A DNA stretch of 64,000 nucleotides, taken from positions 856 through 64,855 of the forward strand of contig JAURFW010000011.1 in assembly GCA_030834125.1 (NCBI GenBank). The letters are read 5' to 3'. Below the pieces are notes generated by a model that made no database searches, was not told the origin of the DNA, and was given only the letters and a program-made list of their open reading frames with translations. Below are positions 17,663 to 58,719 of this stretch, one piece after another. The position numbers and the translations under genes were made by a program. The DNA comes from Bacteroidota bacterium (GTDB lineage Bacteria; Bacteroidota; Bacteroidia; NS11-12g; UBA955). Position 1 is the stretch's first letter. Every line of letters starts with the position of its first letter.

Positions 17663-17670
17663 TACCTTTG
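17663..17670 (+). promoter_or_regulatory. -7 promoter box 4 nt before the ribBA ATG
   Basis: TACCTTTG-tact-ATG. Confidence 0.7.
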
Positions 17671-17674
17671 TACT

Positions 17675-18889
17675 ATGAGTAATGAGTCTTTTACATTAAA
17701 TACAATTGAAGAAGCAATCCAAGATATAAAAGAGGGAAAAGTTGTGATTGTAGTTGATGATGAGGATCGAGAAAATGAAGGTGATTTTTTAACCGCTGCA
17801 CGAAATATGACTCCTGAATTAGTCAATTTCATGGCTAAGGAGGGTAGAGGGCTGATATGTGTTCCATTAACAGAGGAAAGATGTGATTCTTTGGGACTGG
17901 AAATGATGGTGGGTAAAAATACGGCTACACACGAAACTGCCTTTACCGTTTCTGTAGATCTTCTCGGACATGGTTGTACCACAGGAATTTCTGCTCATGA
18001 TAGGTCAAAAACAATTTTAGCACTTACAGATGATAGTATTGATAAAAATGAGTTGGGAAGACCAGGACATATTTTCCCGCTAAAGGCTAAATCTGAAGGT
18101 GTATTGCGTAGAGCGGGACATACAGAAGCTGCAATTGATTTATCTCGTATGGCAGGATTTGAACCCGCCGGATGTATTGTTGAAATTCTCAATGAGGATG
18201 GTACTATGGCACGTTTACCTGATCTAATTGAAGTTTCAAAAAAGTTTGATCTTAAAATTATTAGTATAGAACAGTTAATAGAATATAGAATTAAAAATGA
18301 GAGTTTAATTCAACGTGAAATTTCTGTTCAGATGCCTACCCAAGTTGGCGAATTTGATCTTGTGGCTTACAAGCAAAAGGATACTCATCAAGAACACCTT
18401 GCATTAATTAAAGGTACTTGGAATGAGGATGAAGAAATTTTAGTAAGAGTGCATTCTAGTTGTTTAACTGGAGATATTTTTGGAAGTTGTAGATGTGACT
18501 GTGGGGAGCAATTAAAGAGGGCTATGGAACTTATTGAAGAAGAAGGAAGAGGCGTTATTGTCTATATGAATCAAGAGGGTCGAGGAATAGGATTGTTAAA
18601 TAAATTGCGAGCCTACAAATTACAAGAACAAGGCTTAGATACGGTGGAAGCCAATATAAAACTTGGCTTTAATATGGATGAAAGAGATTACGGAATAGGT
18701 GCTCAAATTTTAAGAGATCTAGGTGTTGGGAAGATGAGGTTAATGAGTAATAATCCTAGAAAGAGAACGGGTTTGATTGGGTATGGATTAGAAATAGTAG
18801 ATAATGTTCCGCTACAAGTTCCAGCAAATCCACACAATGCCAAGTATTTAGATACTAAAAAGATAAAAATGGGACATACATTAAAATAG
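17675..18889 (+). CDS. ribBA: Bifunctional DHBP synthase / GTP cyclohydrolase II
   Basis: [34 protein letters not shown] and QEGRGIG motifs. Start moved from TTG 17660 to ATG 17675. Confidence 0.97.
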
Positions 18890-18897
18890 TAATTAAG

Positions 18898-19740
18898 ATG
18901 AAGACAATTATTCCAGGTGAAATTCCAATTCCACAATTACATCAATTTTTAATAGGAAGTGTAGCACCACGTCCAATATGTTTTGCAAGTACAATCGATT
19001 CCCAAGGGATCCCGAATTTAGCTCCATTTAGCTTTTTTAATGTGTTTAGCGCAAATCCTCCAATTTTAATATTTGCACCAAATAATAGCGGACGCACTGG
19101 TCTGCCAAAAGACACTTTGCTTAATGTAAAACAGGTTCCAGAAGTGGTTATTAACATGGTGAATTTTGAGATGGTTGAGAAGATGAATGTGGCAGCCGCT
19201 CCATGGGATAAAGGAATAAGTGAATTTGATAAAGCTGGGTTTACTGCACTTGATTCAGATATAGTTAAACCATTTAGAGTTAAGGAATCACCAGTTCAAA
19301 TTGAATGTAAGGTTCTTGAAGTTAAAGAAATGGGTACCGGCGGAGGTGCTGGAAACATTGTGATTTGTCAGGTAGAAAAATTGCACATTGAAGAGGCTAT
19401 TTTAAATGAAGAAGGTAAGATAGATCAAAATAAGATAGACCTTGTGGGTCGTTTGGGTGGTAGTTGGTATTCTCGATCAAACTCACCCTCTTTATTTGAG
19501 TTAAAACAACCCATGCAGGCAACTATTGGATATGACGCTTTGCCCAAGTCTTTAAAAGAAAGTTTGTTGGTTTCAGCTAATATAATTGGTAAAATTTCTT
19601 CGCTGTTAGAATGGCCCTCGAATGATCAAATTACAAAGGCCAAGGAAAACTTAGAAAGCCGCTCACTGGAAGATTTAGTTAATGAATCGATTCAAAAAGA
19701 GGACTTTGTTAGTGTTTTATCGCTGTATTTAACACATTAA
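18898..19740 (+). CDS. Flavin reductase family protein (DIM6/NTAB)
   Basis: VAPRPI, NLAPFSFFN, KDTLLN, VKESPVQIEC and VGRLGGSWY. Confidence 0.9.
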   Translation: MKTIIPGEIPIPQLHQFLIGSVAPRPICFASTIDSQGIPNLAPFSFFNVFSANPPILIFAPNNSGRTGLPKDTLLNVKQVPEVVINMVNFEMVEKMNVAAAPWDKGISEFDKAGFTALDSDIVKPFRVKESPVQIECKVLEVKEMGTGGGAGNIVICQVEKLHIEEAILNEEGKIDQNKIDLVGRLGGSWYSRSNSPSLFELKQPMQATIGYDALPKSLKESLLVSANIIGKISSLLEWPSNDQITKAKENLESRSLEDLVNESIQKEDFVSVLSLYLTH

Positions 19741-19748
19741 ACTATTGA

Positions 19749-19769
19749 TTTGAGGCTTTTTGCCTCAAA
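19749..19769. terminator. Hairpin after the ribBA operon
   Basis: TTTGAGGC-ttttt-GCCTCAAA. There is no classical U-tract on the + strand. Confidence 0.4.
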
Positions 19770-19778
19770 AGTTCGTTG

Positions 19779-19786
19779 TATCTTTG
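19779..19786 (+). promoter_or_regulatory. -7 promoter box 5 nt before the yqeY ATG
   Basis: TATCTTTG-cactc-ATG. Confidence 0.7.
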
Positions 19787-19791
19787 CACTC

Positions 19792-20235
19792 ATGACATTG
19801 GCAGATAAAATCAATGAGGGTATAAAAGAGGCGATGAAAGCTAAAGATAGCGATCGTTTAAGGGCACTTAGAGGTATTAAAAGTGCATTTTTATTATTAC
19901 AAACAGCAGAGGGCGCAAGCACTATAACAGAAGATAGTTACATCAAAGCCCTTCAAAAATTAGCAAAGCAAAGAAAAGACTCAATTGAAATTTACGAACA
20001 GCAAGGTCGTGAGGATTTGGCAAATACCGAGAAATCTGAATTAAAGTTTATTGAACAATATTTACCAGCACAAATGGGTGAGGAAGAAATTCGTGCTATC
20101 ATAAAAAATATTGTCAGTGATCTAGGTATTTCAGGGCCTGCAGCGATGGGCAAGGTAATGCCAGAAGCAATGAAGGCATTAGGGGGTAAAGCAGATGGCA
20201 AATTAATTTCTCAAATTGTTAAAGAATCATTATAA
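19792..20235 (+). CDS. GatB/YqeY domain protein
   Basis: IKEAMKAKD...LRGIKSA, KQRKDSIEIY, YLPAQM, MGKVM and GKADGK. Start moved to ATG 19792. Confidence 0.93.
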   Translation: MTLADKINEGIKEAMKAKDSDRLRALRGIKSAFLLLQTAEGASTITEDSYIKALQKLAKQRKDSIEIYEQQGREDLANTEKSELKFIEQYLPAQMGEEEIRAIIKNIVSDLGISGPAAMGKVMPEAMKALGGKADGKLISQIVKESL

Positions 20236-20238
20236 AAA

Positions 20239-21777: not shown

Positions 21778-21823
21778 TCTATCGCGTATTTTCGCCCTTC
21801 ATAATAAAAAAAGAAATTAAAAC

Positions 21824-25084: not shown

Positions 25085-25085
25085 C

Positions 25086-25113
25086 AAAAACCCCGCTGAA
25101 AGCGGGGGTTTTT
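25086..25113 (+). terminator. Terminator-like hairpin directly abutting the rlmB start codon
   Basis: AAAAACCCCGCT-gaa-AGCGGGGGTTTTT followed immediately by ATG. Confidence 0.65.
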
Positions 25114-25860
25114 ATGAAGTCTAATCAGTCATTAATTTACGGAATCCATCCAGTTATAGAAGCGCTGGAGTCAGGAAAAACTATTGATAAAGTATGGATT
25201 CAAGAGGGTTTTCAAACCGGCCAACTGGCTGAAATAATTCAACTTCTAAAGAGTAGAAGAATTATTTGGAGACAAGTTCCTTCTAGTAAATTAAATTCCT
25301 TAGTTAGAGGGAATCATCAAGGGATAGTCATTTCGCTTTCATCCGTTGATTTTGCTCGAATTGAAGATGTTATTGACGCAGCCTATTCCAAAGGTAAAGA
25401 TCCATTTATTTTAGTGTTAGATGGGATTACTGATGTTCGAAATTTTGGCGCTATTACTAGAACGGCATTGAGTGCAGGAGTGGACGGAATAATAATTCCT
25501 GAAACTGGCGCTGCACCAGTGGGCCCAGATTCAATAAAGACCTCTGCAGGGGCCCTGCTGAAAATACCAATTTGTAGAACAAATTCAATGCATCATTCAC
25601 TGAAGCATTTAAAAAATTCAGGATTAACAATTGTGGGGGCAACTGAAAAAGCGGCTCAAGGACTTTACGAAACAGATTTTTCTGGTCCATTGGCTGTGGT
25701 AATGGGTAATGAGGAGAAAGGAATTTCTTTAGACGCAACTAAAATGTGCGACTATACAATAAAAATTCCAATGGCAGAAGGTTCAATCGATTCATTGAAT
25801 GTTGGTGTGGCTACTGGTGTTGTCATATATGAAGCTTTCAGACAAAGATTAATAATGTAA
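25114..25860 (+). CDS. rlmB: 23S rRNA (Gm2251) 2'-O-methyltransferase, SPOUT family
   Basis: IYGIHPVIEAL, NHQG, LDGITDVRNFGAI, MGNEEKG and SLNVGVA. Confidence 0.93.
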   Translation: MKSNQSLIYGIHPVIEALESGKTIDKVWIQEGFQTGQLAEIIQLLKSRRIIWRQVPSSKLNSLVRGNHQGIVISLSSVDFARIEDVIDAAYSKGKDPFILVLDGITDVRNFGAITRTALSAGVDGIIIPETGAAPVGPDSIKTSAGALLKIPICRTNSMHHSLKHLKNSGLTIVGATEKAAQGLYETDFSGPLAVVMGNEEKGISLDATKMCDYTIKIPMAEGSIDSLNVGVATGVVIYEAFRQRLIM

Positions 25861-25869
25861 TTTGGGTTT

Positions 25870-26988
25870 ATGAAAGGAATTCAAATGGTCAATTTGGTTT
25901 CTCATTATAATCGGTATAAAAAGCTGATTGATGCAAGAATAAATTCGGTTTTAGAACATGGAAAATTCATACAAGGGCCCGAAGTGCGAGAATTTGAGCA
26001 TGAATTAGCTAAATTTCTAGGAGTAAACCATGTAATTACCTGCGGTAATGGCACCGATGCACTTCAAATTGCCTTTATGGCACTTAATTTAAAAGAAGGC
26101 TCAGAAGTAATCGTTCCTTCTTTTGCCTATGCAGCTTTGCCAGAAGTATTATTATTATTAAGACTAAAACCAATTTTTGTTGATGTAAACCAAGATACCT
26201 TTCTCATTGATATAAAAAAGGTAGAGGAAAAGATTACTGAAAAAACCGTTGCAATAGCTCCAGTTCATTTATTTGGCCAAAATGCCAATATGGAAGCAAT
26301 TGTAAAAATTGCAAAAGAAAATAATTTAAAAATTGTTGAAGACGCCGCTCAAAGTTTGGGTAGTTGGTATTGCTCGGAAAACATCCACGGTGCATCAGGT
26401 TGTATAGGTGATATTGGTATAACATCATTTTTTCCGAGTAAAAATTTAGGTTGCTTCGGCGATGGAGGTGCAATATTTACCAACGATTCTAAATTGGCAG
26501 AAAGAGCAAGAAAAATATCAAATCACGGTCAGTCCAAGAAATACACTCATGAAATTATTGGCTTGAATTCGCGTTTAGATACAATGCAAGCAGCAATCTT
26601 ACTGGCAAAATTACCTCATTTAGAATCATGTATTTATGGTAGAGTTAAGGTGGCTGAACGCTATCAATCAGAATTATCAAAAATAAGTTCAATTAAACTT
26701 CCTAAAAGAGATTCCAATGGAACGCACTCTTATCATCAATACACTATCAAACTAGAAAATAGTATTATCAGGGATAATCTTGCCGCGTATCTGCATTCAA
26801 AAAATATAGCATCTATGATTTATTATCCCCTACCTTTGCATAGACAAAAAGCTTATTCTGTGCTTATTGATCTATCCGTATCTGAAAATCTCTGTTCTAC
26901 AGTTTTAAGCTTACCAATTTGTCCAGAATTGACAGAAGTTGAACAATTTGAAATTATAAACGAAATAAAATTTTTCTTTAATCAATGA
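25870..26988 (+). CDS. DegT/DnrJ/EryC1/StrS family nucleotide-sugar aminotransferase
   Basis: NGTDAL, VHLFGQ, EDAAQS, SFFPSKNLG (PLP lysine) and NSRLD. Confidence 0.93.
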   Translation: MKGIQMVNLVSHYNRYKKLIDARINSVLEHGKFIQGPEVREFEHELAKFLGVNHVITCGNGTDALQIAFMALNLKEGSEVIVPSFAYAALPEVLLLLRLKPIFVDVNQDTFLIDIKKVEEKITEKTVAIAPVHLFGQNANMEAIVKIAKENNLKIVEDAAQSLGSWYCSENIHGASGCIGDIGITSFFPSKNLGCFGDGGAIFTNDSKLAERARKISNHGQSKKYTHEIIGLNSRLDTMQAAILLAKLPHLESCIYGRVKVAERYQSELSKISSIKLPKRDSNGTHSYHQYTIKLENSIIRDNLAAYLHSKNIASMIYYPLPLHRQKAYSVLIDLSVSENLCSTVLSLPICPELTEVEQFEIINEIKFFFNQ

Positions 26989-28292: not shown

Positions 28293-28293
28293 C

Positions 28294-30303: not shown

Positions 30304-31610
30304 TATTTTTTCCTGTAGAATATACTAAATGGAACACCAGTAAAGTTAAACTTTTCCCTGATTTTATTTTCTAAAAATCTCGTGTAGCTCTCAACCACAT
30401 ACTGTGGAAGATTACAGAAAAACGCAAAAGCCACTCTTCTACTTGGCAACTGGGTTACAAACTTGATTTTTACGAATTTTCCTTTCCTACTTGGAGGTGG
30501 AGTTACTTCCATAATTGGTAAAAGATAATCGTTCAATTCACGTGTACTAATTTTTGTACTGAGTGAATCATAAACTTCAACCACCGTTTCAATTGTTTGG
30601 AAGATTCGTTGTTTTGTTAATGCCGAAATGAAGAGAATTGGTACATCTACAAATGGCGCAATTTTTGTTTTTATATTCTCGGCATAATCCCTCGCGGTAT
30701 TGGTTTCCTTTTCAACCAAATCCCATTTATTCACCAAAATAACTAAACCTTTACCCAGTCGATGTGACATCCAAAATAAGTTAAGATCTTGCGATTCTAA
30801 CCCTTGTTGTGCATCAAGTACAAGTACAACTACATCAGAGTTTTCTAATGCTTTAAGGGAGCGCATTACAGAATAGAATTCTATGTTTTCACGCACTTTA
30901 CTCTTTTTTCGTATTCCTGCCGTGTCCACCAACATTAGCTCTTTGCCGTATGCCTTGTATAGAGTATCTATACTATCGCGTGTAGTACCCGCAATATCAG
31001 TTACAATATTCTGCTCTTTACCAATTAATGCATTGATAAGACTACTTTTACCCACATTTGGCCTTCCTACAATCGCAATTCTTGGATATTCCTCATCAAC
31101 TACAACTGGAGGCTCATCCTGAAGCAGATCGGTAACTTTATCCAATAACTCACCTGTACCAGAGCCGCTCGCAGATGATACTTCAAATATTTCATCAAAT
31201 CCTAGAGCATAAAATGAAGGGGCTTGAAGTCTTAAATCTTCATTATCAACTTTGTTCACACAAAGTACAACTGGTTTTTTATGTCGATGTAAAAGCTTTG
31301 CAAATTCTTCATCTAAAGGATGAATATCTGACTGTACATCAACCATAAAAACTAAAACTGCAGCTTCCTCTATTGCTATATGTACTTGTTCTCGTATTGC
31401 AGTTTCAAAAATATCAGCACTATCTGGAACGAATCCCCCAGTATCGATTACTGTAAATTCAAGACCATTCCATTCAGATCTTCCATAGTGCCTATCACGA
31501 GTAACACCACTATAGTCATCAACAATGGCCTTTCTTGCACCAGTTAATCGATTAAATAAGGTGCTTTTTCCCACGTTAGGTCTTCCCACGATGGCTACAA
31601 TTCTACTCAT
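30303..31610 (-). CDS. der: Ribosome biogenesis GTPase Der (EngA)
   Basis: Two GRPNVGKS P-loops, DTGG/DTAG, NKVD/NKWD and a KH-like C-terminus. Confidence 0.98.
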   Translation of the reverse strand: MSRIVAIVGRPNVGKSTLFNRLTGARKAIVDDYSGVTRDRHYGRSEWNGLEFTVIDTGGFVPDSADIFETAIREQVHIAIEEAAVLVFMVDVQSDIHPLDEEFAKLLHRHKKPVVLCVNKVDNEDLRLQAPSFYALGFDEIFEVSSASGSGTGELLDKVTDLLQDEPPVVVDEEYPRIAIVGRPNVGKSSLINALIGKEQNIVTDIAGTTRDSIDTLYKAYGKELMLVDTAGIRKKSKVRENIEFYSVMRSLKALENSDVVVLVLDAQQGLESQDLNLFWMSHRLGKGLVILVNKWDLVEKETNTARDYAENIKTKIAPFVDVPILFISALTKQRIFQTIETVVEVYDSLSTKISTRELNDYLLPIMEVTPPPSRKGKFVKIKFVTQLPSRRVAFAFFCNLPQYVVESYTRFLENKIREKFNFTGVPFSIFYRKK

Positions 31611-31614
31611 ACCG

Positions 31615-31622
31615 CAAAGATA
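31615..31622 (-). promoter_or_regulatory. -7 promoter box 4 nt before the der ATG
   Basis: TATCTTTG-cggt-ATG. Confidence 0.7.
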
Positions 31623-31705
31623 CGAACTTCATTACTTAGGCAGGAAAATTAATGACCTTATCAAGATTCCATCATTTGTAATCAGAGTTTTATTATTTAT
31701 TGGCC

Positions 31706-31713
31706 TATTTTTG
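31706..31713 (+). promoter_or_regulatory. -7 promoter box 4 nt before the folA ATG
   Basis: TATTTTTG-tttt-ATG. Confidence 0.65.
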
Positions 31714-31717
31714 TTTT

Positions 31718-32206
31718 ATGGGTGTATCTATTATTGCTGCTATTGGAATAAATAACGAATTGGGCGCTCAAAATGATTTACTTTGGCACTTGCCGACAGA
31801 TTTCAAGTGGTTTATTTCCCATACAAAAGGTAAACCAGTTATCATGGGAAGGAAAACAATGCTGAGTTTAGGTAAACCACTTAAAGGACGACTGAATATT
31901 GTTGTAACCCGAGGTAAATTCAACGTTGATGGTTTTCTTTTCTTCAATTCTATAAAGGAAGCCATAAAATATGCTCAACTGGAAAATGATGAAATTATGA
32001 TTATTGGCGGAGCAGAAATCTATAAACAGACAATAGATCTTGCAGATAAGTTAATTATCACACGTGTGCACGGTGCATTTGAACAAGCGGATGTTTTTTT
32101 TCCTGAGATTTCAAACTGTTGGGAATTACAGTCTCAGGTATCTCACGGGGTAGATGAAAATCATGCCTATGCGTTTGACTTTCAAATTTTCATAAAATGC
32201 GATTAA
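31718..32206 (+). CDS. folA: Dihydrofolate reductase
   Basis: LLWHLPTDFKWF, IMGRKT, PLKGRLNIV and IIGGAEIY. Start moved to ATG 31718. Confidence 0.95.
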   Translation: MGVSIIAAIGINNELGAQNDLLWHLPTDFKWFISHTKGKPVIMGRKTMLSLGKPLKGRLNIVVTRGKFNVDGFLFFNSIKEAIKYAQLENDEIMIIGGAEIYKQTIDLADKLIITRVHGAFEQADVFFPEISNCWELQSQVSHGVDENHAYAFDFQIFIKCD

Positions 32207-32236
32207 TGAGATGATTGATTACCTTTGTAAATAACC

Positions 32237-34233: not shown

Positions 34234-34430
34234 GCAATAAATAAATCGAGAAATGCTCGTTGTTTGCCCAATTTTAACTAGTGTAATCATTTTTTCAATA
34301 AATTTGGTTGTAGCTCATGACTTTTCCTATAATATTTTGCCATTAAATAATGGTAGTTTTGTCAACAAGGAGTATTGTGATTTTGATTCGAATAATATGG
34401 ATAAAGTTAATTTTAACGAGAGAACTATAT

Positions 34431-38190: not shown

Positions 38191-38210
38191 ATAGATTTTT
38201 TTGGTTTACT

Positions 38211-40022: not shown

Positions 40023-40033
40023 GCCTATCGATA

Positions 40034-40106
40034 CTCAAAGTGTATTCCAATTAATGAAGTAGGAAAAATTGTCATGATTTTAACTTTAAAATCCGAAATT
40101 ATGTCA
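40034..40106 (-). promoter_or_regulatory. Sigma54-like -24/-12 element plus two TGACA boxes upstream of htpG
   Basis: Minus strand TTGGAATACACTTTGAG (GG-N10-GA) at 40034-40050; TGACA at 40070-40074 and 40102-40106. Confidence 0.45.
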
Positions 40107-40134
40107 GTATTAACTTTTGTTTTTACTTTGTGAT

Positions 40135-40638
40135 GTGGCATGGCAGAAGAAACCTACCTTCCTAACCCCTGAAAAAGTTTTACAAAAACTTGAGAAGTAT
40201 TGCGTCTATCAAGAGCGAAGTCAATTACAAGTAGAAAATAAATGTCGTGAATATGGAATGACAGCAGAAGAAACGGGTCAAATTTTGGTTGATTTAATTC
40301 AATCTAATTTTATTAATGAGGAGCGGTTTGCTTTAGCTTATGTAAAAGGAAAGTTTAATCAAAAAAACTGGGGACCCAAAAAGATTGAAATAGGTTTGAA
40401 GCAAGCTGGGATTAGAAAGTCTCTAATAGATAGAGCCTTAAGTAGTATAGTTGATGACCAACAAGCGAATAAAATTGAGAAACTTGCTAGAAAAAAAATT
40501 AAATTAATGGGATATTCCAATGAGGGATCATTATCAGAACTTAAGTCACAATTAAACTTTTTAGAACAGCAAAAGGTTATGAAATATTTATTTCAAAAAG
40601 GGTACCTTTTGGATGAAATTAATAAGGTATTTAGTTGA
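40135..40638 (+). CDS. recX: RecX family regulator
   Basis: YCVYQERS, NFINEERFA, KNWGPKKI and YLFQKGY. GTG 40135 is preferred as start (TTACTTTG-tgat-GTG). Confidence 0.9.
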   Translation: MAWQKKPTFLTPEKVLQKLEKYCVYQERSQLQVENKCREYGMTAEETGQILVDLIQSNFINEERFALAYVKGKFNQKNWGPKKIEIGLKQAGIRKSLIDRALSSIVDDQQANKIEKLARKKIKLMGYSNEGSLSELKSQLNFLEQQKVMKYLFQKGYLLDEINKVFS

Positions 40639-41431
40639 TAGGTTTTAAGGAAGCATTATCAGAAATACTTCCACGCATGGTTAAAGGAATTCTAAACTCG
40701 CTCATCAAGAGATTTCCTGTTAATTCCATTTGGTAGAATAATTTAGTTATTAGGTTGTTATTTAAATCCACTTGAATATTACCATTAGATGTTCCTACAA
40801 CTGTTTGTTCAGACTCAACTCCAGAAAAATTAGTTTTTGTCGTGTAATCCATTTCTTGGTTAACGGTAAAATATCCAATATTAGCAACCACGCTATCGAA
40901 GGTGTAATTTATTATACCATACTGATTGTATGATGAGTCTATCCAAGAATCTCCAATGTTTCGAGCAATATCTGTATTTATGAAAACTCCGTAAGGTAAA
41001 CCTTCTTGCATACCAGAAACAGGATTAGCTTTCAATGCTTCAATTATATCTGGACTCCCTTCAACGGATTTAATTATGCCTTTTTCGCCGAGTTTTAGGG
41101 TGAAGTTTAGTTCACCCTCAAGAGGGGTGATTTGATCCATTCCTGAATCTAGATAAACTACAACATTAGTTTTTTGTGTACCTTCATGAACTGCAGTTTG
41201 TATTTGGTTTTCAATTTCTCCTGTCAAGTCAATTGTATTTCGTGTGGTGTTCTTGAATCCGTTAACAAAATCAGTACCTAAATAAAGATAGTTTGTGGTC
41301 ATATCCATAACCGTCTTTTTATAAATTTTTACTGAAGGAAAAAACCCTTCTAAAGGCTTTAATATCTTCTGTTGTGCTGATAGAATACCAGAAAATGCAA
41401 CTGCAACAACTAAACCAACAAACTTTTGCAT
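40631..41431 (-). CDS. Exported hypothetical protein, beta-strand rich (DUF6263-like by impression)
   Basis: Signal peptide ending LSA-Q; IGDSW motif and alternating beta-strands. A -7 box TAATTTTG (41436-41443) lies 4 nt before the ATG. Confidence 0.7.
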   Translation of the reverse strand: MQKFVGLVVAVAFSGILSAQQKILKPLEGFFPSVKIYKKTVMDMTTNYLYLGTDFVNGFKNTTRNTIDLTGEIENQIQTAVHEGTQKTNVVVYLDSGMDQITPLEGELNFTLKLGEKGIIKSVEGSPDIIEALKANPVSGMQEGLPYGVFINTDIARNIGDSWIDSSYNQYGIINYTFDSVVANIGYFTVNQEMDYTTKTNFSGVESEQTVVGTSNGNIQVDLNNNLITKLFYQMELTGNLLMSEFRIPLTMRGSISDNASLKPIN

Positions 41432-41508
41432 AAACCAAAATTAACTATTTTCAATCCACTCTACAAGTCATTATTGTCATAAAAGACAAAATTATCTAAA
41501 TAATTGAC

Positions 41509-42537
41509 CTATTTGAAATGATCCGCAGACATTTTCAACCATTGTAAGGCTGACGCACCTAATAATTTTTCTTGGATTATATCTGAAAATCCTGTTTCTT
41601 TTATTAATAGTCCAGGGATATCTTCACCCAATGGAAAAGGATAATCGGTGCCTAAACAAACTTTGTCTGGCCCAACTAAATCAACAATATACTCCAACAT
41701 TTTAGGATCGTGAACAAGGCTATCTAACCAAAATTGTCCCAGGTACTTTTTAGGGTTATGTATATTATCTACTGCAACTAAATCCGGTCTCGCTTTCCAA
41801 CCGTGTTCAATTCTTCCAATAGTTGCAGGAAATGCTCCACCACCATGCGCAAAAGCTACTCTTAGATTTGGTAGCCTTTCAAAGATCCCTCCAAAAATAA
41901 GTGAACTAACAGCTAAGGAAGTTTCAGCTGGCATACCAACGAGCCAGGGTAACCAGTAATCAGGCATTTTCTTTTTCGCAGAATACCACCATGGATGAAT
42001 GAATAACGCCATATCTAGATCTTGCATTGCTTCAAAAATTGGGAATAGTGATGGGTCATTTAAGTTTAAATCATTAACATGTGATCCTATTTGAACTCCT
42101 TTTAGACCTATTTTCTTGCATCTTTTTAATTCTTGAATTGCTAACTCAGTGTGTTGCATTGGAATTGTACCTAATCCCACAAATCTCCTGGGGTATTTAA
42201 CACAAATCTCAGCAATATGATCGTTTAGAAATTTGGATATTTCCAACGTGTGTTTTGGTTCTGCCCAATATGAAAACATTACTGGAATAGTACTTAATAC
42301 TTGTACATCTACCGGAACTTGGTTGCATTCATGAATTCTTTGTTCTGCACTCCAACAGTTATTTTCAATTTCTCGAAAAAACTCGCCATCCATCATCATT
42401 CTTGCGCAGCAAGGTTTATGATGCTCAAGTGATACAAATTCACCATATCCAAATTTTTCTTTCCATTGTGGTAGGTTTTCTGGTATGATGTGAGTGTGAA
42501 TGTCTATCGTTAGAAAGCGAGATTTCGATTGTTCCAT
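41509..42537 (-). CDS. 2-amino-3-carboxymuconate-6-semialdehyde decarboxylase (ACMSD), amidohydrolase family
   Basis: IDIHTH, VQVLSTIPVMFSYW, FIHPW, WLVGMPAET, AHGGG and GTDYPFPLG. A -7 box TATTTTTG (42542-42549) lies 4 nt before the ATG. Confidence 0.9.
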   Translation of the reverse strand: MEQSKSRFLTIDIHTHIIPENLPQWKEKFGYGEFVSLEHHKPCCARMMMDGEFFREIENNCWSAEQRIHECNQVPVDVQVLSTIPVMFSYWAEPKHTLEISKFLNDHIAEICVKYPRRFVGLGTIPMQHTELAIQELKRCKKIGLKGVQIGSHVNDLNLNDPSLFPIFEAMQDLDMALFIHPWWYSAKKKMPDYWLPWLVGMPAETSLAVSSLIFGGIFERLPNLRVAFAHGGGAFPATIGRIEHGWKARPDLVAVDNIHNPKKYLGQFWLDSLVHDPKMLEYIVDLVGPDKVCLGTDYPFPLGEDIPGLLIKETGFSDIIQEKLLGASALQWLKMSADHFK

Positions 42538-42596
42538 TGAGCAAAAATAAAGTAATACTTAAAAAGCTTGATTTTTTTTACGTTTTTTGAACTTGG

Positions 42597-45277: not shown

Positions 45278-45279
45278 AT

Positions 45280-46680: not shown

Positions 46681-46760
46681 TTTTACACTAAGTGTTGCAA
46701 TTTAATACAATATGTGTGTTTTACAAATAAATAAAGAATCAATATTAATACCTTTGCAAA

Positions 46761-47228
46761 ATGGATTTAGTTGAACTTCAGGAGAAAGTGAAGACTGGAA
46801 TTATTTCAATGGGTCTTTCAGAAAATGAGGCACAATGGGATGAGCATGGGCAATGGGTATTATTAAAAGATGAGATCCCAGTATATATAGATGCTTGGGA
46901 GGAAACAGAAAGTACCCCTTGGAATTATGCAAATTTTGAGAAGGACAGAAGTATTTTTCAAATTACCATACCGTTTTGTTTTGGACCAACGTTAAAGCGT
47001 GATGCTTTCTTTGAGGAGCTCTTGTCAGTGAATTTAAATCTGTTGTTTGGAAAATTTTCTTTTAACTCAAAAGAAAATATTTCTGTGATCTCTTATAGAA
47101 TCCCAGGAGAAGCATTTCAGTCAACTAGTTTGCAGAGCATGATTGATCTTTTGGCTTATTATTCTGAAATGGCTTATCACGTTTTAAAGGATGAGTTTAA
47201 TCTTAAGCGTGTAAGTGCTATAAATTGA
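46761..47228 (+). CDS. Hypothetical protein, YbjN/CesT chaperone-like fold by impression
   Basis: Acidic 155-aa protein with FFEELLSVNLNLLFGKFSF. A -7 box TACCTTTG (46749-46756) lies 4 nt before the ATG. Confidence 0.55.
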   Translation: MDLVELQEKVKTGIISMGLSENEAQWDEHGQWVLLKDEIPVYIDAWEETESTPWNYANFEKDRSIFQITIPFCFGPTLKRDAFFEELLSVNLNLLFGKFSFNSKENISVISYRIPGEAFQSTSLQSMIDLLAYYSEMAYHVLKDEFNLKRVSAIN

Positions 47229-47243
47229 TTTATATTTGACACA

Positions 47244-47969
47244 ATGAAATTATTTACATTAATCGGAATTTTTGCTGCAATTTTATTTACAGCATGTGGT
47301 TCTAAATCAACTGATGAAAAAGTCACCCTAGATGTAGAAAAAGCTTACAATTTGGCTCATTCTGCTGGGGATAAGGAAACAGTAATTCAAACTTTAACAC
47401 AATGGGCTGCAATTGATTCAAGTATCACGAATTGGGTGTGGGATACGCTTGCTTATTACCATTATTTTTATAAAGTTACACCGGGTGCAGTTAGAAATCC
47501 GGGAACAGCACTATTTTATGTAAACAAGGGACTTGCAAATTCACCAAGCAATGAATTTTTAAAAGATATAAAAGCTAAGTTAGTTTTAGAAAAAGGAGAT
47601 GATACTACTGCCTATACTATGTTTGAGGAAATGTGGAATTCTACTCACAAACCAACGTATTTCTGGGATCTTACATGGTTAGAAGTTGCACGTGGGAATG
47701 TTCCTAAAGCATTGCAAATGATTGATCAGGCAATGAATGACAGCGCTATCATGAGTGGAACCGTAACAATGGAACATATTCAAGCACAAATGACAGAAAA
47801 CGTTAAGGCTGAAGCAGCATTCTTATTTCTTAAGTATCAAATTGAATTTGCTAAGCAAAATATTATGAAAGGTGCGGAATATCTCCAGAAATGTGTGGAG
47901 ATAGATCCAAATTTCTATGCTGCCAAACGGAGTATTATGGAGCTGCAGAGGTATTCTGCAGGACGATAA
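47244..47969 (+). CDS. TPR-like lipoprotein
   Basis: Lipobox LFTA-C; helical repeats ending AEYLQKCVEIDPNFYAA. A -7 box TATATTTG (47231-47238) lies 5 nt before the ATG. Confidence 0.75.
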   Translation: MKLFTLIGIFAAILFTACGSKSTDEKVTLDVEKAYNLAHSAGDKETVIQTLTQWAAIDSSITNWVWDTLAYYHYFYKVTPGAVRNPGTALFYVNKGLANSPSNEFLKDIKAKLVLEKGDDTTAYTMFEEMWNSTHKPTYFWDLTWLEVARGNVPKALQMIDQAMNDSAIMSGTVTMEHIQAQMTENVKAEAAFLFLKYQIEFAKQNIMKGAEYLQKCVEIDPNFYAAKRSIMELQRYSAGR

Positions 47970-47972
47970 AAT

Positions 47973-52367: not shown

Positions 52368-52396
52368 ATCCTTCTTTTACTTTGGGGATCTCAAAT

Positions 52397-54438: not shown

Positions 54439-54470
54439 AAGTCGACAAACACAAATGTACAAGATGTAAC

Positions 54471-55178
54471 TTAGAATAACGTGGTTTGTGGGGGAATATA
54501 TTTTTCAATTGACCAAGCTGCATTTCTTTTGTTTTTAGGTGAATTTAACATTGGGTTAACTTCATGTGCAACAAGGTAGTCTGCACTATTTTCATTGGCT
54601 ATTTCAAATCTGTTTTTAGCGTTTTCACTTATCCAATCTTTAGCAAGATTATGCGGGATGATAAGAGGCATCCTTTTTTTGGTATTGTGAATTTCAGACA
54701 TAAGAGCATTGGCTTCTCGAGTAATTATACTGTATGTTCTAATCCAACGTGATTGGGTGTTATCGAACCAATCATTAAAAATCCCACCAAATAAAAGAAT
54801 TTCATTATTTTGAGGGTAAATGTAGAAAGGATATTTCTTGTTATCCCTGTGTTGCCATTCAAAAAAACCTGAAGCTAAAATTAAACATGGATTGTTATTC
54901 CAAGAATCATTAAAAGAGGGTTTAGAGTCAATTGTTTCAATTCGAGCATTTAAAGTCTTATTTGAGAATTCAATAGTTCCCGCATGATTCTTTAACCACT
55001 TTGGTATTAATCCCCATTGTGCAGTTTCAATTTTTCCTAACTTACTTACAATTGGCAAATTTGGGTGATCAAATCCGTTAAAGAAAAACCCAAGTTGTTG
55101 TGCATCTCCTGTAGGGTTTATACCTATGTCTTTAGGAGTGATCTTTCCTTGTAGGTTCACTGAATAAGAGAAACACAT
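54471..55178 (-). CDS. SOS response-associated peptidase (SRAP/HMCES/YedK) abasic-site processing protein
   Basis: Cys at position 2, WGLIP, NARIET, GFFEW and IHNTKKRMP. A -7 box TACTTTTG (55183-55190) lies 4 nt before the ATG. Confidence 0.92.
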   Translation of the reverse strand: MCFSYSVNLQGKITPKDIGINPTGDAQQLGFFFNGFDHPNLPIVSKLGKIETAQWGLIPKWLKNHAGTIEFSNKTLNARIETIDSKPSFNDSWNNNPCLILASGFFEWQHRDNKKYPFYIYPQNNEILLFGGIFNDWFDNTQSRWIRTYSIITREANALMSEIHNTKKRMPLIIPHNLAKDWISENAKNRFEIANENSADYLVAHEVNPMLNSPKNKRNAAWSIEKYIPPQTTLF

Positions 55179-55287
55179 TAATCAAAAGTAATAAAATCAT
55201 TATAATCGGTAGATATTTAATAATGTCCTACGAGAATCATGGAAACAATAAATATAATTACGAAATTTGCCGAAAATTAATTTAAGC

Positions 55288-55704
55288 ATGTCGAATCGTA
55301 CATTTACAATGATTAAACCAGATGCAGTTGCAAACGGACATTCTGGTAAAATTTTAGATCACATTATCCAAGCAGGATTTAAAGTAGTAGCGTTAAAATA
55401 CACTAAGCTTACCCAGGAACAAGCTGGAGCATTTTATACTGTTCATAAAGAGAGACCGTTTTATGGCGAATTAGTTGATTTCATGACTAGCGGTCCGATT
55501 TATGCAGCTATTTTGGAAAAGGATAATGCAGTAGCAGACTTCCGAGATCTTATTGGTACAACTAACCCAAAAGAAGCAGCTTCAGGAACTATTCGTAATT
55601 TGTATGCTAAAAGTATTGATGCAAACGCAATTCATGGTAGCGATTCTGATGAAAATGCTGCCATAGAAGGTAATTTCTTCTTCTCTTCGTTTGAGAGATT
55701 TTAA
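55288..55704 (+). CDS. ndk: Nucleoside diphosphate kinase
   Basis: [21 protein letters not shown] and NAIHGSDS. Start moved to ATG 55288. Confidence 0.97.
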
Positions 55705-55723
55705 TTATTAACTATGAATAATT

Positions 55724-55755
55724 AAAAACCTCGAATTCATATTCGGGGTTTTTTT
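55724..55755 (+). terminator. Intrinsic terminator after ndk
   Basis: AAAAACCTCGAAT-tcat-ATTCGGGGTTTTTTT. Confidence 0.8.
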
Positions 55756-55772
55756 ATGTATTTTTACTATTC

Positions 55773-56489
55773 ATGGCAAAAAGGAAATTAGCTAATATTC
55801 ATTTACTAGAAGGTCCACATAACCGATTCACCGAATTATTTTTCGGTTTCCGAGTATTAAACGAATTTTTAAAGGGATTCAGGAAGTTACATTTTGTTGG
55901 ACCCTGCATAAGTATTTTTGGTGGAGCAAGGTTTAAAACGGATTCTAAGACCTATCAACGCGCCAAAGCAATGGGTAGTCGTGTAAGTGAAATGGGATTT
56001 ACTGTTTTAACTGGTGGCGGACCAGGAATTATGCAAGCAGCAAATGAGGGAGCGAAGGCTGTTGGGGGTAAAAGTGTAGGTGTAAATATTGAATTGCCAT
56101 TTGAACAAAAGCCAAATCCTTTTCTAGATGTTTGGGTTGATATCAGATATTTCTTCGTTCGTAAAGTGCTACTATTTAAGTACTCATTCGGATTTATTGT
56201 GTTCCCAGGTGGCTTTGGTACACTAGATGAAATGTTTGAAGCATTAACATTAATTCAAACTCAAAAGGTTCCAAACTTTCCTGTTGTTCTGATTGATACT
56301 GAATATTGGAGTCCGCTTAAGAATCTTATTGAGACATTTAAAGATAAAGGGAGTATATCTCCTGAAGATACCCAATTACTTTTAATAACAGATGATTTTG
56401 ATGAGGCCTTAGAATTTATTAAGAGTAAGGTAGATAAAATGCCGCGTAAAACGAGTAGATTTAAACGTTTATGGTGGCTTGGTGAGTAA
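55773..56489 (+). CDS. LOG family (TIGR00730-like) nucleotide phosphoribohydrolase
   Basis: TGGGPGIM, LPFEQKPN, YFFVRK and PGGFGTLDE. Confidence 0.92.
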   Translation: MAKRKLANIHLLEGPHNRFTELFFGFRVLNEFLKGFRKLHFVGPCISIFGGARFKTDSKTYQRAKAMGSRVSEMGFTVLTGGGPGIMQAANEGAKAVGGKSVGVNIELPFEQKPNPFLDVWVDIRYFFVRKVLLFKYSFGFIVFPGGFGTLDEMFEALTLIQTQKVPNFPVVLIDTEYWSPLKNLIETFKDKGSISPEDTQLLLITDDFDEALEFIKSKVDKMPRKTSRFKRLWWLGE

Positions 56490-56522
56490 AATCAAAACAT
56501 ACCAGCAAAAAAATTTTGGTTG

Positions 56523-56530
56523 TACCTTTG
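56523..56530 (+). promoter_or_regulatory. -7 promoter box 4 nt before the DHS-like gene ATG
   Basis: TACCTTTG-cccc-ATG. Confidence 0.7.
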
Positions 56531-56534
56531 CCCC

Positions 56535-57506
56535 ATGAAAGGTCCTATTTCTCAGTTTGTAGAAAAACATTACAAACACTTTAATGCTGCGGCTTTAGTT
56601 GATGCGGCTAAGGGATATGAAACTCATATTAATGAGGGTGGTAAAATGATGGTAACTTTAGCAGGGGCAATGAGTACTGCGGAGTTAGGTAAGAGTTTAG
56701 CCGAAATGATACGCCAAGGGAAAGTGGATATTATAAGCTGTACGGGAGCAAACCTAGAAGAGGATATAATGAACCTTGTAGCTCACAATCATTATAAAAG
56801 AGTGCCACATTACAGAGATTTAAGTCCTAAGGATGAGTGGGATTTACTTGAAAATCATTATAACAGAGTTACTGATACCTGTATTCCGGAAGAGGAAGCA
56901 TTTCGTAGATTACAAAAGCATATTCACGGTATTTGGAAAAAGGCAGAGGACTCGGGAGAAAGATTTTTTCCTCATGAGTATATGTATCAAATATTGTTAA
57001 GTGGTGAGTTAAAACAATATTACGAAATTGACCCAAAAGATAGTTGGATGTTAGCCGCTGCAGAAAAGAATTTACCAATTGTTGTTCCTGGATGGGAAGA
57101 TTCTACTATGGGAAATATTTTTGCTAGTTACGTTATTAAAGGCGAGTTACAAGCATCCACCATGAAAAGTGGTATTGAATATATGGCCTGGTTAGCGGAT
57201 TGGTACGTAAAAAATAGTGATGGAAAAGGTATAGGCTTTTTCCAAATTGGAGGCGGTATAGCCGGCGATTTTCCAATTTGTGTTGTTCCAATGTTATATC
57301 AAGACATGGAAATGGAAAACATTCCATTCTGGAGTTATTTCTGTCAAATATCAGACAGTACAACTAGTTATGGAAGTTACTCTGGAGCTGTCCCGAATGA
57401 AAAAATAACCTGGGGTAAGTTAGATATTGATACTCCTAAATTTATTGTTGAAAGTGATGCTACAATTGTGGCTCCTTTAATGTTTGCATGGATTCTTGGT
57501 TGGTAA
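56535..57506 (+). CDS. Deoxyhypusine synthase-like protein (probably polyamine/homospermidine synthesis)
   Basis: LAGAMS, CTGANLEED, IGGG and GSYSGAVPNEKITWGK (catalytic Lys present). Start moved to ATG 56535. Confidence 0.92.
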   Translation: MKGPISQFVEKHYKHFNAAALVDAAKGYETHINEGGKMMVTLAGAMSTAELGKSLAEMIRQGKVDIISCTGANLEEDIMNLVAHNHYKRVPHYRDLSPKDEWDLLENHYNRVTDTCIPEEEAFRRLQKHIHGIWKKAEDSGERFFPHEYMYQILLSGELKQYYEIDPKDSWMLAAAEKNLPIVVPGWEDSTMGNIFASYVIKGELQASTMKSGIEYMAWLADWYVKNSDGKGIGFFQIGGGIAGDFPICVVPMLYQDMEMENIPFWSYFCQISDSTTSYGSYSGAVPNEKITWGKLDIDTPKFIVESDATIVAPLMFAWILGW

Positions 57507-57507
57507 A

Positions 57508-58029
57508 ATGGGTAGTTTAATTCCAGAACTTAAGAAAATTAAGGGTTTTATTTTTGATGTAGATGGTGTTATGACTCCCGGTCAGGTATTGATTACCGAA
57601 GAGGGTTATATGCTGCGATCAGTAAATATTAAAGATGGTTTTGCTATTCAACATGCTGTAAAGGCTGGTTATAAAGTGGGTATAATTTCAGGTGGTAAAT
57701 CTGAAGGTGTTCGAAAGCGTTTTGAAGGTCTTGGTGTAGAGCATATATATTTAGGTCAGAAGGAAAAAGTTAATGCATTCAATGAATTGATCAAAATATG
57801 GGGTATTGATTCTTCGCATATTGCATATATGGGTGATGATTTTCCAGATGTACCTGTTTTAGAATTAGCAGGTATTAGTTGTTGTCCTAAAGATGCAGCT
57901 GTTGATGTTTTGGATGTTTGTGAATTTATCAGCCCTATCAATGGCGGTCAAGGTTGTGTTAGAGATTTGATAGAGAAAACTATGAAAATCCAGGAAACTT
58001 GGTTCAACGATGAAAGCCATCGTTGGTAG
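57508..58029 (+). CDS. kdsC: KDO 8-phosphate phosphatase, HAD family
   Basis: FDVDGVMT, KDG, YMGDD..D and GGQGCVRD. Start moved to ATG 57508. Confidence 0.88.
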   Translation: MGSLIPELKKIKGFIFDVDGVMTPGQVLITEEGYMLRSVNIKDGFAIQHAVKAGYKVGIISGGKSEGVRKRFEGLGVEHIYLGQKEKVNAFNELIKIWGIDSSHIAYMGDDFPDVPVLELAGISCCPKDAAVDVLDVCEFISPINGGQGCVRDLIEKTMKIQETWFNDESHRW

Positions 58030-58056
58030 CTTCGATATATTCTTTATATTTGATTC

Positions 58057-58719
58057 ATGACAGCATCAGAATTAATTAATGAAAACATCCATGTTTTGCG
58101 CATTACTGATACTGTAGAATGTGCTATCGATTTATTGTGTCAGCAAGGCATGAGTGAATTACCGGTTGTACTAAATAAAAAGCTATACAATTATGTTCGA
58201 CTTGATTTATTGTACGCAATTGATGATAAATCTCAGGAGCTTAAAACTGTATTAAAAGAGAATCCTCATGCCGCAATTGTTATGGCTCATTCCCATATTT
58301 ATGAATTAATTCCCCTATTGGCAACTAATCAATTAACTGCCATTGCTGTATGTAATAACAATTTTGACTTCCTTGGAGTAGTTGATCAAAAGAGGATAAA
58401 TGAAATTATTACAAATTCTTTAACATACCGAGGTTTTGGTGCGGTAATTGTGCTTAATGTACCTTCATCAGATTATGCTCCATCTATTATAGCGAGATGG
58501 GTTGAAGAAAATGGAGCAAAAGTATTGGGAATGATGGTTACCCAAATGCAGGAATCTAGATTGCGTGTTAATATAAAACTTAACACAACTCAAGTACGCA
58601 GCATTATCGCTACTTTTCAGCGTCAGGGATTTCAAGTTGAGCAGGTTTATATGGCCGAAGATTCCAATGAAGATACTAGCAGAGCTGTTGATATGGCGCT
58701 GAGATTTTTCGATTTATAA
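58057..58719 (+). CDS. CBS-pair protein with a C-terminal ACT-like domain
   Basis: Two CBS-like repeats, then IARWVEENGAKVLG...IIATFQRQGF. A -7 box TATATTTG (58045-58052) lies 4 nt before the ATG. Confidence 0.8.
   Translation: MTASELINENIHVLRITDTVECAIDLLCQQGMSELPVVLNKKLYNYVRLDLLYAIDDKSQELKTVLKENPHAAIVMAHSHIYELIPLLATNQLTAIAVCNNNFDFLGVVDQKRINEIITNSLTYRGFGAVIVLNVPSSDYAPSIIARWVEENGAKVLGMMVTQMQESRLRVNIKLNTTQVRSIIATFQRQGFQVEQVYMAEDSNEDTSRAVDMALRFFDL

Follow-up and report, generated by a model that had tools for sequence, protein, structure and literature searches.

Along a 64-kb stretch of the genome of an uncultured aquatic Bacteroidota bacterium (the window, by which we mean the whole stretch of DNA analysed), the word TAnnTTTG repeatedly stands just a few nucleotides before a start codon. 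What does this placement mean for the messages of these genes? Bacteroidota primary-sigma (sigma-ABfr, or sigma-A) promoters, as described in B. fragilis, F. johnsoniae (PMC6847099) and F. psychrophilum (PMC9723704), combine a -7 element TAnnTTTG with a -33 element TTTG. In the available text of the F. johnsoniae study, the box is laid out as T-12 A-11 .. T-8 T-7 T-6 G-5 and the start site follows 4 or 5 nt later (PMC6847099), and in that of the F. psychrophilum study it likewise occupies positions -12 to -5 (PMC9723704). An earlier note on this DNA had taken TAnnTTTG to be the primary-sigma -7 element, with transcription starting a few nucleotides after its G, and the accessible parts of both papers bear this out. 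With the box at -12 to -5 and the start 4–5 nt later, +1 falls on the A of the ATG.

Read from the letters of the window, TAnnTTTG followed by a 4- or 5-nt spacer and ATG was present at 11 of the 11 consensus sites listed in the earlier note, nine with the shorter and two with the longer spacer (Table 1). The near-consensus box proposed for recX was also located. For degT, the proposed box was found as well, but it is a weaker match close behind another gene and its membership is doubtful. The promoters of folA and der lie back to back within a 107-bp spacer. The TTG-start extensions pointed out in the open reading frame list are there too: MYLCTM (from 17660), MAYFCFM (31700) and MYLCPM (56520). 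Over the window as a whole, TAnnTTTG is not enriched (98 sites versus 96.5 ± 10.4 in shuffles), and what is unusual about the motif is its position only, not its frequency.

Table 1 Boxes, spacers and start codons at the sites in the window (coordinates are those of the window; the interval runs over box, spacer and start codon).
Gene	Interval	Strand	Box	Spacer	Start codon	Start position	Context
ribBA (DHBP synthase/GTP cyclohydrolase II)	17663..17677	+	TACCTTTG	N4	ATG	17675	neighbour gene divergent
yqeY-family gene	19779..19794	+	TATCTTTG	N5	ATG	19792	same-strand upstream gene 51 nt away
degT (doubtful member)	25858..25872	+	TAATTTGG (one mismatch)	N4 (gttt)	ATG		9 nt past upstream gene
der (engA)	31608..31622	-	TATCTTTG	N4	ATG	31610	
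folA (DHFR)	31706..31720	+	TATTTTTG	N4	ATG	31718	
recX	40123..40137	+	TTACTTTG (near-consensus)	N4 (tgat)	GTG		
266-aa protein, no Pfam family above cut-off	41429..41443	-	TAATTTTG	N4	ATG	41431	
Amidohydro_2 (ACMSD-like) gene	42535..42549	-	TATTTTTG	N4	ATG	42537	divergent spacer 59 nt
155-aa gene, no Pfam family above cut-off	46749..46763	+	TACCTTTG	N4	ATG	46761	
241-aa gene	47231..47246	+	TATATTTG	N5	ATG	47244	gap to upstream gene 15 nt
SRAP gene	55176..55190	-	TACTTTTG	N4	ATG-TGT	55178	
Deoxyhypusine-synthase-family gene	56523..56537	+	TACCTTTG	N4	ATG	56535	TTG abutting box
220-aa gene, weak CBS match	58045..58059	+	TATATTTG	N4	ATG	58057	27 nt past upstream gene

Most of the gene names given earlier are backed by Pfam families: DHBP synthase/GTP cyclohydrolase II, EngA/Der, DHFR, Amidohydro_2, SRAP, the deoxyhypusine-synthase family, YqeY, DegT, citrate synthase, the class II Lys-type and class I Ile-type tRNA synthetases, and NDK. 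The recX product has RecX domains. The CBS match is below the Pfam cut-off (E 1.2e-4), and the proteins that had been called exported (ATG 41431) and TPR (ATG 47244), like the product of the gene at 46761, have no Pfam family above it.

We then counted the distance from box to start codon across the genome (2.30 Mb; our own gene calls, n = 1808, with the first in-frame ATG chosen by rule). This was the check proposed in the earlier note, and it gave a sharp genome-wide peak at 4–5 nt. The box stood at spacing 4–5 before 115 of the 1808 genes, versus a mean of 2.8 after shuffling of the upstream sequences (maximum 8 in 200 shuffles). At spacing 3–8 there were 201 genes (8.3 in shuffles, maximum 19), including a shoulder of 77 at spacings 6–8, which imply leaders of 1–4 nt rather than zero, and at spacing 0–52 there were 430 (73.6 in shuffles), 262 of them at spacings 3–14. 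Of the perfect boxes in excess of chance in the 52 nt before a gene, about two thirds imply leaders of at most 10 nt. Among ATGs that open reading frames of at least 100 codons, the counts fell from 81 at spacing 4 to 57, 39, 31 and 22 at spacings 5, 6, 7 and 8; spacings 0–1 gave 2–4, and those of at least 21 mostly 3–19. ATGs that open no long reading frame showed no spacing peak genome-wide. The two gene classes hinted at in the earlier note show up only as a peak at 4–8 nt above a broad tail at 9–30 nt.

Chance, base composition or gene calling has next to no probability as the source of this peak. The chance frequency of the motif across the window is what such a reading could invoke; against it stand the excess over shuffles, the scrambled motifs (0–10 per offset), the same peak in an annotation-free count, and the presence of the spacing signal in genus-mates. 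The artefact reading was thus put to the test and was not supported.

Are the boxes promoters? They have the -7 box of a sigma-A (Bfr-type) promoter, and the positional enrichment was specific to TAnnTTTG and absent from scrambled words. A TTG directly abutting the box was enriched (26/207 versus 3.7 expected). Upstream of the boxes, where a -33 element (TTTG or TTG) would be expected some 19 nt away, TTG was not enriched at any spacer of 10–37 nt relative to boxes inside genes; this does not exclude sigma-A (Bfr-type) membership, because the -33 element is likewise weak or undetectable in F. johnsoniae, according to the available text (PMC6847099). Sigma-70-type promoter matches were below chance in 40000–59999 (60 versus 83.8). 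A perfect box alone is not sufficient for a promoter, given its chance frequency overall and the 943 sense-strand copies inside genes.

The boxes are distributed as promoters would be, ahead of transcription units and not of coupled internal genes. At spacing 3–8 they preceded 96/566 divergent genes (94–96), 54/297 genes behind a same-strand gap of 30–99 nt, 27/155 behind a gap of 10–29 nt and 24/248 behind a gap of at least 100 nt, but only 3/529 of the genes that overlap the previous one or follow it by less than 10 nt. The near absence from this last, translationally coupled group speaks against the idea that TAnnTTTG-N4-ATG is a translation-initiation or coupling signal in an mRNA whose transcription starts further upstream. 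In favour of such a signal are the boxes of genes lying only 10–29 nt behind another. Against it, the mapped -7 promoter box is the very same word, variable spacings of 9–30 nt also occur, TTG starts are lacking at spacing 4, which a signal read by the ribosome would not explain, and the Bacteroidota initiation signals in the accessible literature are A-rich rather than T-rich. We regard this reading as extremely unlikely.

At about a quarter of sites a gene on the same strand ends 10–99 nt upstream, in many cases with no intervening terminator, and this raises another possibility: the boxes may be real but weak or secondary, many of the genes being expressed mainly from upstream transcripts by the usual SD-independent internal initiation, with the leaderless transcript a minor species. 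In its favour, a same-strand gene lies 10–99 nt ahead at 81 of the 201 boxes counted at spacing 3–8, and terminator-like sites are at chance in 40000–59999 (12 versus 11.9). The box of the 47244 gene begins 3 nt past the upstream stop codon, so the rest of its promoter lies inside the upstream gene. However, the box is equally frequent in divergent genes, for which a promoter of their own is obligatory, and neither the exact spacing nor the restriction to ATG and GTG would be expected to persist for an unimportant transcript. Read-through as the main source of these messages thus seems improbable to us, though less far-fetched than a ribosomal signal.

The start codons, too, are restricted. 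At spacing 4 we counted 72 ATG, 23 GTG and 3 TTG starts. GTGs that open reading frames peaked only there, with no more than 4 at any of the remaining spacings in the range 0–20, whereas TTG starts showed no spacing peak (1–6 per spacing) and ATG starts also occurred at spacings 5–8. Beyond these GTGs, the reading frame reaches its next ATG 11–123 codons downstream. A genome from an unrelated family was alike, with 13 GTG and 1 TTG at spacing 4. GTG at spacing 4 only, together with the missing TTG peak, points to a purine at +1; the predicted messages have the AUG or GUG start with an initiating purine expected of a leaderless mRNA. The recX start matches this genome-wide class of spacing-4 GTG starts.

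It could be objected that transcription begins at these promoters but translation begins at a later codon, leaving the AUG or GUG at +1 unused and the mRNAs leadered. Nothing specific speaks for this beyond the rule by which our gene calls take the first in-frame ATG, and we consider it very unlikely. For seven window proteins (ribBA, Der, DHFR, Amidohydro_2, SRAP, the deoxyhypusine-synthase-family protein and YqeY), the Pfam alignment starts at the N-terminus, and for SRAP, DHFR, Der and YqeY it starts within residues 1–5. Residues 3–159 of DHFR match profile positions 2–158, and the SRAP profile aligns from residue 1 (M-C...), so that no later start is possible. The Der N-terminus is kept from residue 1 across 26 loci of the genus. 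Signal-peptide-like N-termini are at normal positions and equally frequent in the spacing-4–5 class (33/120) and elsewhere (357/1661). Finally, an unused in-frame ATG would not show a 40-fold enrichment at spacing 4–5. For the proteins checked by profile, conservation or signal peptide, the codon adjoining the box is the true translation start.

We therefore return to leaderless messages, for which the published +1 geometry, the purine rule, the distribution over heads of transcription units, the conservation of the der site and the start codons borne out by Pfam profiles and signal peptides argue indirectly. It is likely that the -7 boxes of ordinary housekeeping-sigma promoters have moved up to the start codon, which would yield leaderless mRNAs or mRNAs with a 1-nt leader. 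The promoters would be of the sigma-A, Bfr type, with the box T-12 A-11 n n T-8 T-7 T-6 G-5 abutting the start codon. With a 4-nt spacer, the first base that RNA polymerase copies would be the A (or G) of that codon; with a 5-nt spacer, it would be that base or the one before it. Judging from this geometry, transcription probably starts at the ATG and translation is probably leaderless, presumably by direct recognition of the 5'-terminal AUG or GUG. One point against is that these messages show no less structure over their initial 40 nt than do those of other genes that head operons (mean -3.13 versus -3.08 kcal/mol, p = 0.42).

How many transcription units are affected? Among 1111 genes that resemble heads of transcription units, a perfect box at spacing 3–8 precedes 169. 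GTG starts at spacing 4 add another 18, and 65 show a box with one mismatch at spacing 4–5 (28 expected). The predicted share is thus about 13% of heads for the exact geometry and about 20% for spacing 3–8. The earlier note had expected a large share to be leaderless; the prediction supports a sizeable one, but the window, with 11 sites where the genome average predicts about 3.2 per 64 kb, overstates it.

The arrangement is common to the whole genus and arose through shortening of leaders in the lineage. The der promoter has TATCTTTG at spacing 4 (22 loci) or 5 (4 loci) in 26/26 loci of the genus, and box and spacing were kept while the remaining upstream DNA diverged. In sister genera the spacing is 9 and 7, and among 80 other Bacteroidota loci it is 15–22 in 48 and 4 in 1. 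Elsewhere in the genome, conservation is partial: in one genus-mate, 8/15 orthologues of spacing-4–5 genes retain 4–5, one more has 3 or 6–8, and 5/15 have 9–40, while 88/94 box-less genes stay box-less. In other families of Bacteroidia the signal is far stronger. A proposed link to genome compaction was present but weak (Spearman -0.32 over 192 genomes, with moderately shorter divergent spacers).

These patterns allow a broader reading, to which we give slightly less than an even chance: leader length may be an evolvable, lineage-specific trait in the class Bacteroidia, which several families have independently brought to zero under a rule of AUG or GUG at +1. The collapse would be almost complete in our families f45 and f37, intermediate in f62, f51, f50 and part of f27, and moderate in this genus and its family; the +1 rule would resemble that of mycobacteria, AUG or GUG but never UUG; and der would record the transition, from 15–22 nt through 9 and 7 to 4–5. 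If this is true, the SD-independent ribosome of Bacteroidia is generally competent to initiate at a 5'-terminal start codon, and the textbook view that leaderless messages are rare in the phylum is valid only for a few cultured models.

The case is a real, lineage-specific instance of a known mechanism. With Bacteroidota primary-sigma promoters it shares the identical -7 box, its enrichment upstream of genes and the faintness of the -33 element. Unlike here, where the predicted leader mode is 0–1 nt, most promoters of mapped Bacteroidota lie further from the gene: leaders have a mode of 23 nt in B. thetaiotaomicron and, in the available text, a median of 24 nt in F. psychrophilum (PMC9723704) and a mean of 33 nt in F. 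johnsoniae, with 87% above 10 nt (PMC6847099). Those species have a leaderless minority with the same promoter type and the same predicted mechanism: 3.7% of 5' UTRs in B. thetaiotaomicron are below 10 nt (PMC7366714), and for F. psychrophilum the accessible part of the paper gives 5.5% as leaderless (PMC9723704). Our figure of about 13–20% of heads of transcription units is not fully comparable with these mapped values because it is a prediction from sequence, yet the layout is probably commoner in this bacterium than in those members of the phylum that have been studied.

In GeneMarkS-2 group C, described for Actinobacteria and Deinococcus-Thermus, a promoter box lies about 10 nt before operon-first genes (PMC6028130, available text). 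The present genome is alike: many first genes, but not internal ones, are preceded at a short, fixed distance by a promoter signal; in contrast, the same text assigns 408 of 450 Bacteroidetes/Chlorobi to group B (non-SD RBS). In the work of Zheng et al. (2011), 1 of 37 Bacteroidetes/Chlorobi genomes had leaderless genes, and the authors cautioned that their approach would overlook promoters of a non-Pribnow type. In mycobacteria, about 25% of mRNAs are leaderless and a 5' AUG or GUG is sufficient, the 5' RUG rule, according to the accessible text (PMC9094748). The genes studied here differ from these in sigma factor, promoter box and phylum, in being predicted from sequence, and in the limitation of GTG to spacing 4 where ATG also occurs at 5–8, but they resemble them in having ATG or GTG rather than TTG at the predicted +1 and in a gene share of similar order.

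In the window, the promoter word TAnnTTTG (the box) is not itself enriched, occurring 98 times against 96.5 in shuffled sequence; it is its position that stands out. The 11 pairings of box and ATG named in the earlier note are all exact, nine with a spacing of 4 nt between box and start codon and two with 5 nt. Across the 2.30-Mb assembly, ATGs that open ORFs of at least 100 codons have the box at spacing 4 in 81 cases, at 5 in 57, at 6 in 39, at 7 in 31 and at 8 in 22, compared with mostly 3–19 at spacings of 21 or more. ATGs that open no long ORF lack the peak. Using our own gene calls (1919 genes, 1868 evaluated, each started at its first in-frame ATG), we found the genome-wide peak at 4–5 nt that the leaderless reading implies: 115 of 1808 genes, against 2.8 expected and a maximum of 8 when each upstream region was shuffled 200 times. 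At spacings of 3–8 the count was 201 genes against 8.3, and scrambled control words gave 0–10 per offset. Two gene classes had been suggested; the spacings form a peak at 4–8 on a broad tail that reaches about 30, rather than two clean classes. Box copies are also common inside genes (943 on the sense strand), so a perfect box is insufficient for a promoter. A −33 element was looked for upstream of the boxes and was not detectable, and sigma-70-type promoter matches between 40000 and 59999 fell below the shuffled expectation (60 against 83.8 ± 10.4).

Where would transcription start? As reported for F. johnsoniae (PMC6847099) and F. psychrophilum (PMC9723704), the mapped box lies at −12 to −5, 4 or 5 nt before the start site, in agreement with its description as a −7 element followed a few nucleotides later by the start of transcription. 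By this published geometry, MECHANISTICALLY, a 4-nt spacer would make the start codon's first base the transcription start (+1). Transcription and translation would then begin at one base, and the codon found at the predicted +1 should open with a purine. Four independent lines fit such a placement: codon identity, gene context, conservation and the correctness of the starts. Taken with the geometry, they make leaderless transcription the best explanation of start codons that abut the box at spacings of 4–5, and we consider it a probable one.

Of 566 divergent genes, 96 have the box at spacing 3–8, as do 54 of 297 genes separated from the preceding gene by 30–99 nt and 27 of 155 separated by 10–29 nt. 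Where the gap is smaller still or the genes overlap, the number is only 3 of 529. This distribution is consistent with a promoter and not with a signal for ribosomes in general. Among 1111 transcription-unit heads (divergent genes, or genes at least 30 nt behind a same-strand gene), 169 carry a perfect box at spacing 3–8, 93 of them at 4–5. Eighteen further heads have a GTG at spacing 4, and a one-mismatch box at spacing 4–5 precedes 65 heads against 28 expected. The large share of leaderless units claimed from the window would amount genome-wide to about 13% with the exact geometry and about 20% with leaders of 1–4 nt included; the window itself is over-rich, holding 11 sites against the roughly 3 that the genome-wide density would give. 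Perfect boxes within 52 nt of a gene number 430 against 73.6 expected, and 262 lie at spacings 3–14, so that, with chance removed, leaders would be no longer than 10 nt at about two thirds of the recognisable promoters. At closely spaced same-strand sites, transcripts may instead be dominated by read-through from upstream genes: many sites stand close behind a same-strand gene, and terminator-like hairpins between 40000 and 59999 are not above chance. RNA folding showed 5′ ends less structured than gene interiors in all gene classes, and over their first 40 nt the spacing-4–5 genes are not less stably folded than other genes at the head of an operon (p = 0.42). A special pairing of divergent leaderless genes was considered and rejected, since double pairs numbered 8 against 8.1 under independence.

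The identity of the start codons also fits leaderless transcription. At spacing 4, the assembly has 72 ATG and 23 GTG starts, and TTG shows no peak; GTG starts number at most 4 at each other spacing. The next in-frame ATG after these GTGs is 11–123 codons away, which argues that the GTGs are the starts. An unrelated genome with a high signal (G114, family f45; 420 kb) has the same pattern, with 13 GTG and 1 TTG at spacing 4. In both genomes ATG is also frequent at spacings 5–8, unlike GTG, which is limited to spacing 4. A 5′-terminal GUG thus seems acceptable, and a GUG behind a leader of 1–4 nt does not. The preference for ATG and GTG over TTG at the predicted +1 agrees with the 5′ RUG rule reported for mycobacteria (PMC9094748).

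Most gene names in the window held by Pfam: ribBA, der, folA, an Amidohydro_2 enzyme, SRAP, a deoxyhypusine-synthase-family gene, YqeY and DegT among the box genes, and citrate synthase, lysS, ileS and ndk among those with longer leaders. The CBS match fell below the cut-off, and three proteins had no family. The SRAP profile alignment begins at residue 1 of a protein starting Met-Cys, and Pfam alignments are N-terminal for DHFR, Der, YqeY, DHBP synthase, Amidohydro_2 and the deoxyhypusine-synthase domain. Signal-peptide-like N-termini are equally common in the spacing-4–5 class (33 of 120) and elsewhere (357 of 1661). Judged by these alignments, the start codons next to the box are right. Near-consensus boxes had been proposed for recX and degT. 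The former is as described; at degT a box-like string is present, with a mismatch in its TTTG core; the site lies 9 nt after the preceding gene, and its membership is doubtful. The false TTG-start extensions are genuine entries of the ORF list, and those at 17660 and 56520 arise because a TTG abuts the box. Genome-wide, TTG immediately precedes 26 of 207 boxes at spacing 3–8 against 3.7 expected from boxes within genes, and may form an extended −7 element with G at −13.

Features located in the window, with observations on each
Coordinates	Strand	Feature	Observation
17660		ORF-list entry	False TTG start
17660-17670		TTGTAnnTTTG	TTG abuts the box
25085-25113		Strong terminator-like hairpin	CCCCGC-loop-GCGGGG then TTTTT; abuts the ATG of the gene at 25114, which therefore has no room for a promoter box and no obvious leader
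31700		ORF-list entry	False TTG start; TTG located 3 nt before the box
40123-40137		recX near-consensus site	TTACTTTG, 4-nt spacer, GTG
47973-49067	-	Gene	ORF-list GTG start at 49067 overlaps the upstream gene's stop by 4 nt; the first-ATG rule picks 48668, leaving a 395-nt gap; of the two, the GTG coupled to the upstream gene is probably correct
56520		ORF-list entry	False TTG start
56520-56530		TTGTAnnTTTG	TTG abuts the box

The geometry is conserved at der. All 26 genus loci carry TATCTTTG, at spacing 4 in 22 and at spacing 5 in 4; the Der proteins of the 25 other genus genomes are 76–96% identical to that of the window, and by eye the DNA further upstream of the box is unalignable. In sister genera the spacing is 9 and 7 nt, and in a third genus of the family and two genomes of a neighbouring family a perfect box is absent within 50 nt. 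Elsewhere in Bacteroidota, 48 of 80 der loci have a spacing of 15–22 nt and only one, a Tenacibaculum record (L064), has spacing 4, reached independently. The graded series from 15–22 through 9 and 7 to 4–5 points to stepwise leader shortening in this lineage. Pooling these 80 loci as a phylum background was rejected, the pool being dominated by der itself. A genus-mate genome (G017, 400 kb) has the same spacing peak, with 10 genes each at spacings 4 and 5, and its orthologues of spacing-4–5 genes keep the class in 8 of 15 cases.

To measure spread across Bacteroidia, we counted the pattern TANNTTTGNNNNATG against a reversed control. The assembly has 124 against 58; excesses range from 1.6- to 3.8-fold in 18 genus-mates and from 1.2- to 2.4-fold in the neighbouring family. 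The class-wide count covered 401 genomes, and 192 rows were ranked, with G116 and G192 left out. By excess per Mb the assembly ranks 14th of these 192 (28.7; median 10.0, 90th percentile 23.3). Families f45 and f37 are far stronger at 70–97 per Mb, with more such among the 207 genomes outside the ranking, and f62, f51 and f50 also exceed it. G114 has 223 hits against 16 and a second high-signal genome (G065) 357 against 75; in G114, spacing 3–8 accounts for 77 of the 105 promoter-proximal ATGs across 420 kb. In a genome from the neighbouring family (G022, 300 kb), spacings between 4 and 22 are evenly represented. The suggested link to genome compaction proved weak: the Spearman correlation is −0.32 for the 192 genomes and −0.36 when 62 family medians are used instead, overstated because kin are not independent, and within the assembly divergent spacers are moderately shorter, with medians of 124, 102 and 68 nt for no, one and two leaderless genes. 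Ribosomal protein bS21 was rejected as a correlate, being present in five of five genomes, four of high signal (the assembly, G017, G114 and G065) and one of low (G022). Its family (PF01165) matched 6 of 14 named control genomes, leaving the classic leaderless-rich bacteria Thermus, Deinococcus and Corynebacterium unmatched. The 16S rRNA gene, with the anti-SD at its 3′ end, is absent from the 94-contig assembly.

These findings bear on gene prediction. As described, the GeneMarkS-2 survey classes Bacteroidota as ‘non-SD RBS’ (PMC6028130), the genome survey of Zheng et al. 2011 is blind to non-Pribnow promoters, and two papers loosely term Bacteroidetes leaderless-rich, equating ‘SD-less’ with ‘leaderless’ in passages that carry no data of their own. 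Searches of the full-text literature, subscription journals excepted, turned up no account of a Bacteroidota lineage rich in leaderless mRNAs; five GeneMarkS-2 supplementary files did not contain the species list of Bacteroidetes outside group B, where leaderless-type members may be named. Gene finders and start-codon callers treat these genomes as ‘non-SD RBS’, and a promoter-aware model would correct starts in such lineages, resolving both the false TTG extensions and the spacing-4 GTG starts that the first-ATG rule misses. Natural series such as der offer material for studying leader loss, and for flavobacterial engineering a box-N4-ATG fusion is a candidate minimal expression signal.

The predicted mode of initiation is a known mechanism, in a lineage where it was previously unreported, and is quantitatively moderate beside other Bacteroidia families. 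It suggests that ribosomes of the phylum can begin at 5′-terminal start codons much more generally than would be gathered from the three species with mapped start sites (3.7–13% short or absent leaders). In F. johnsoniae, 13% of leaders are reported as 10 nt or shorter (PMC6847099), against about two thirds here, although our figures, predicted from sequence, and those from mapped transcriptomes can be compared only loosely. The predicted share is likewise higher than the 3.7% of 5′ UTRs under 10 nt reported for B. thetaiotaomicron (PMC7366714) and the 5.5% of leaderless transcripts reported for F. psychrophilum (PMC9723704).
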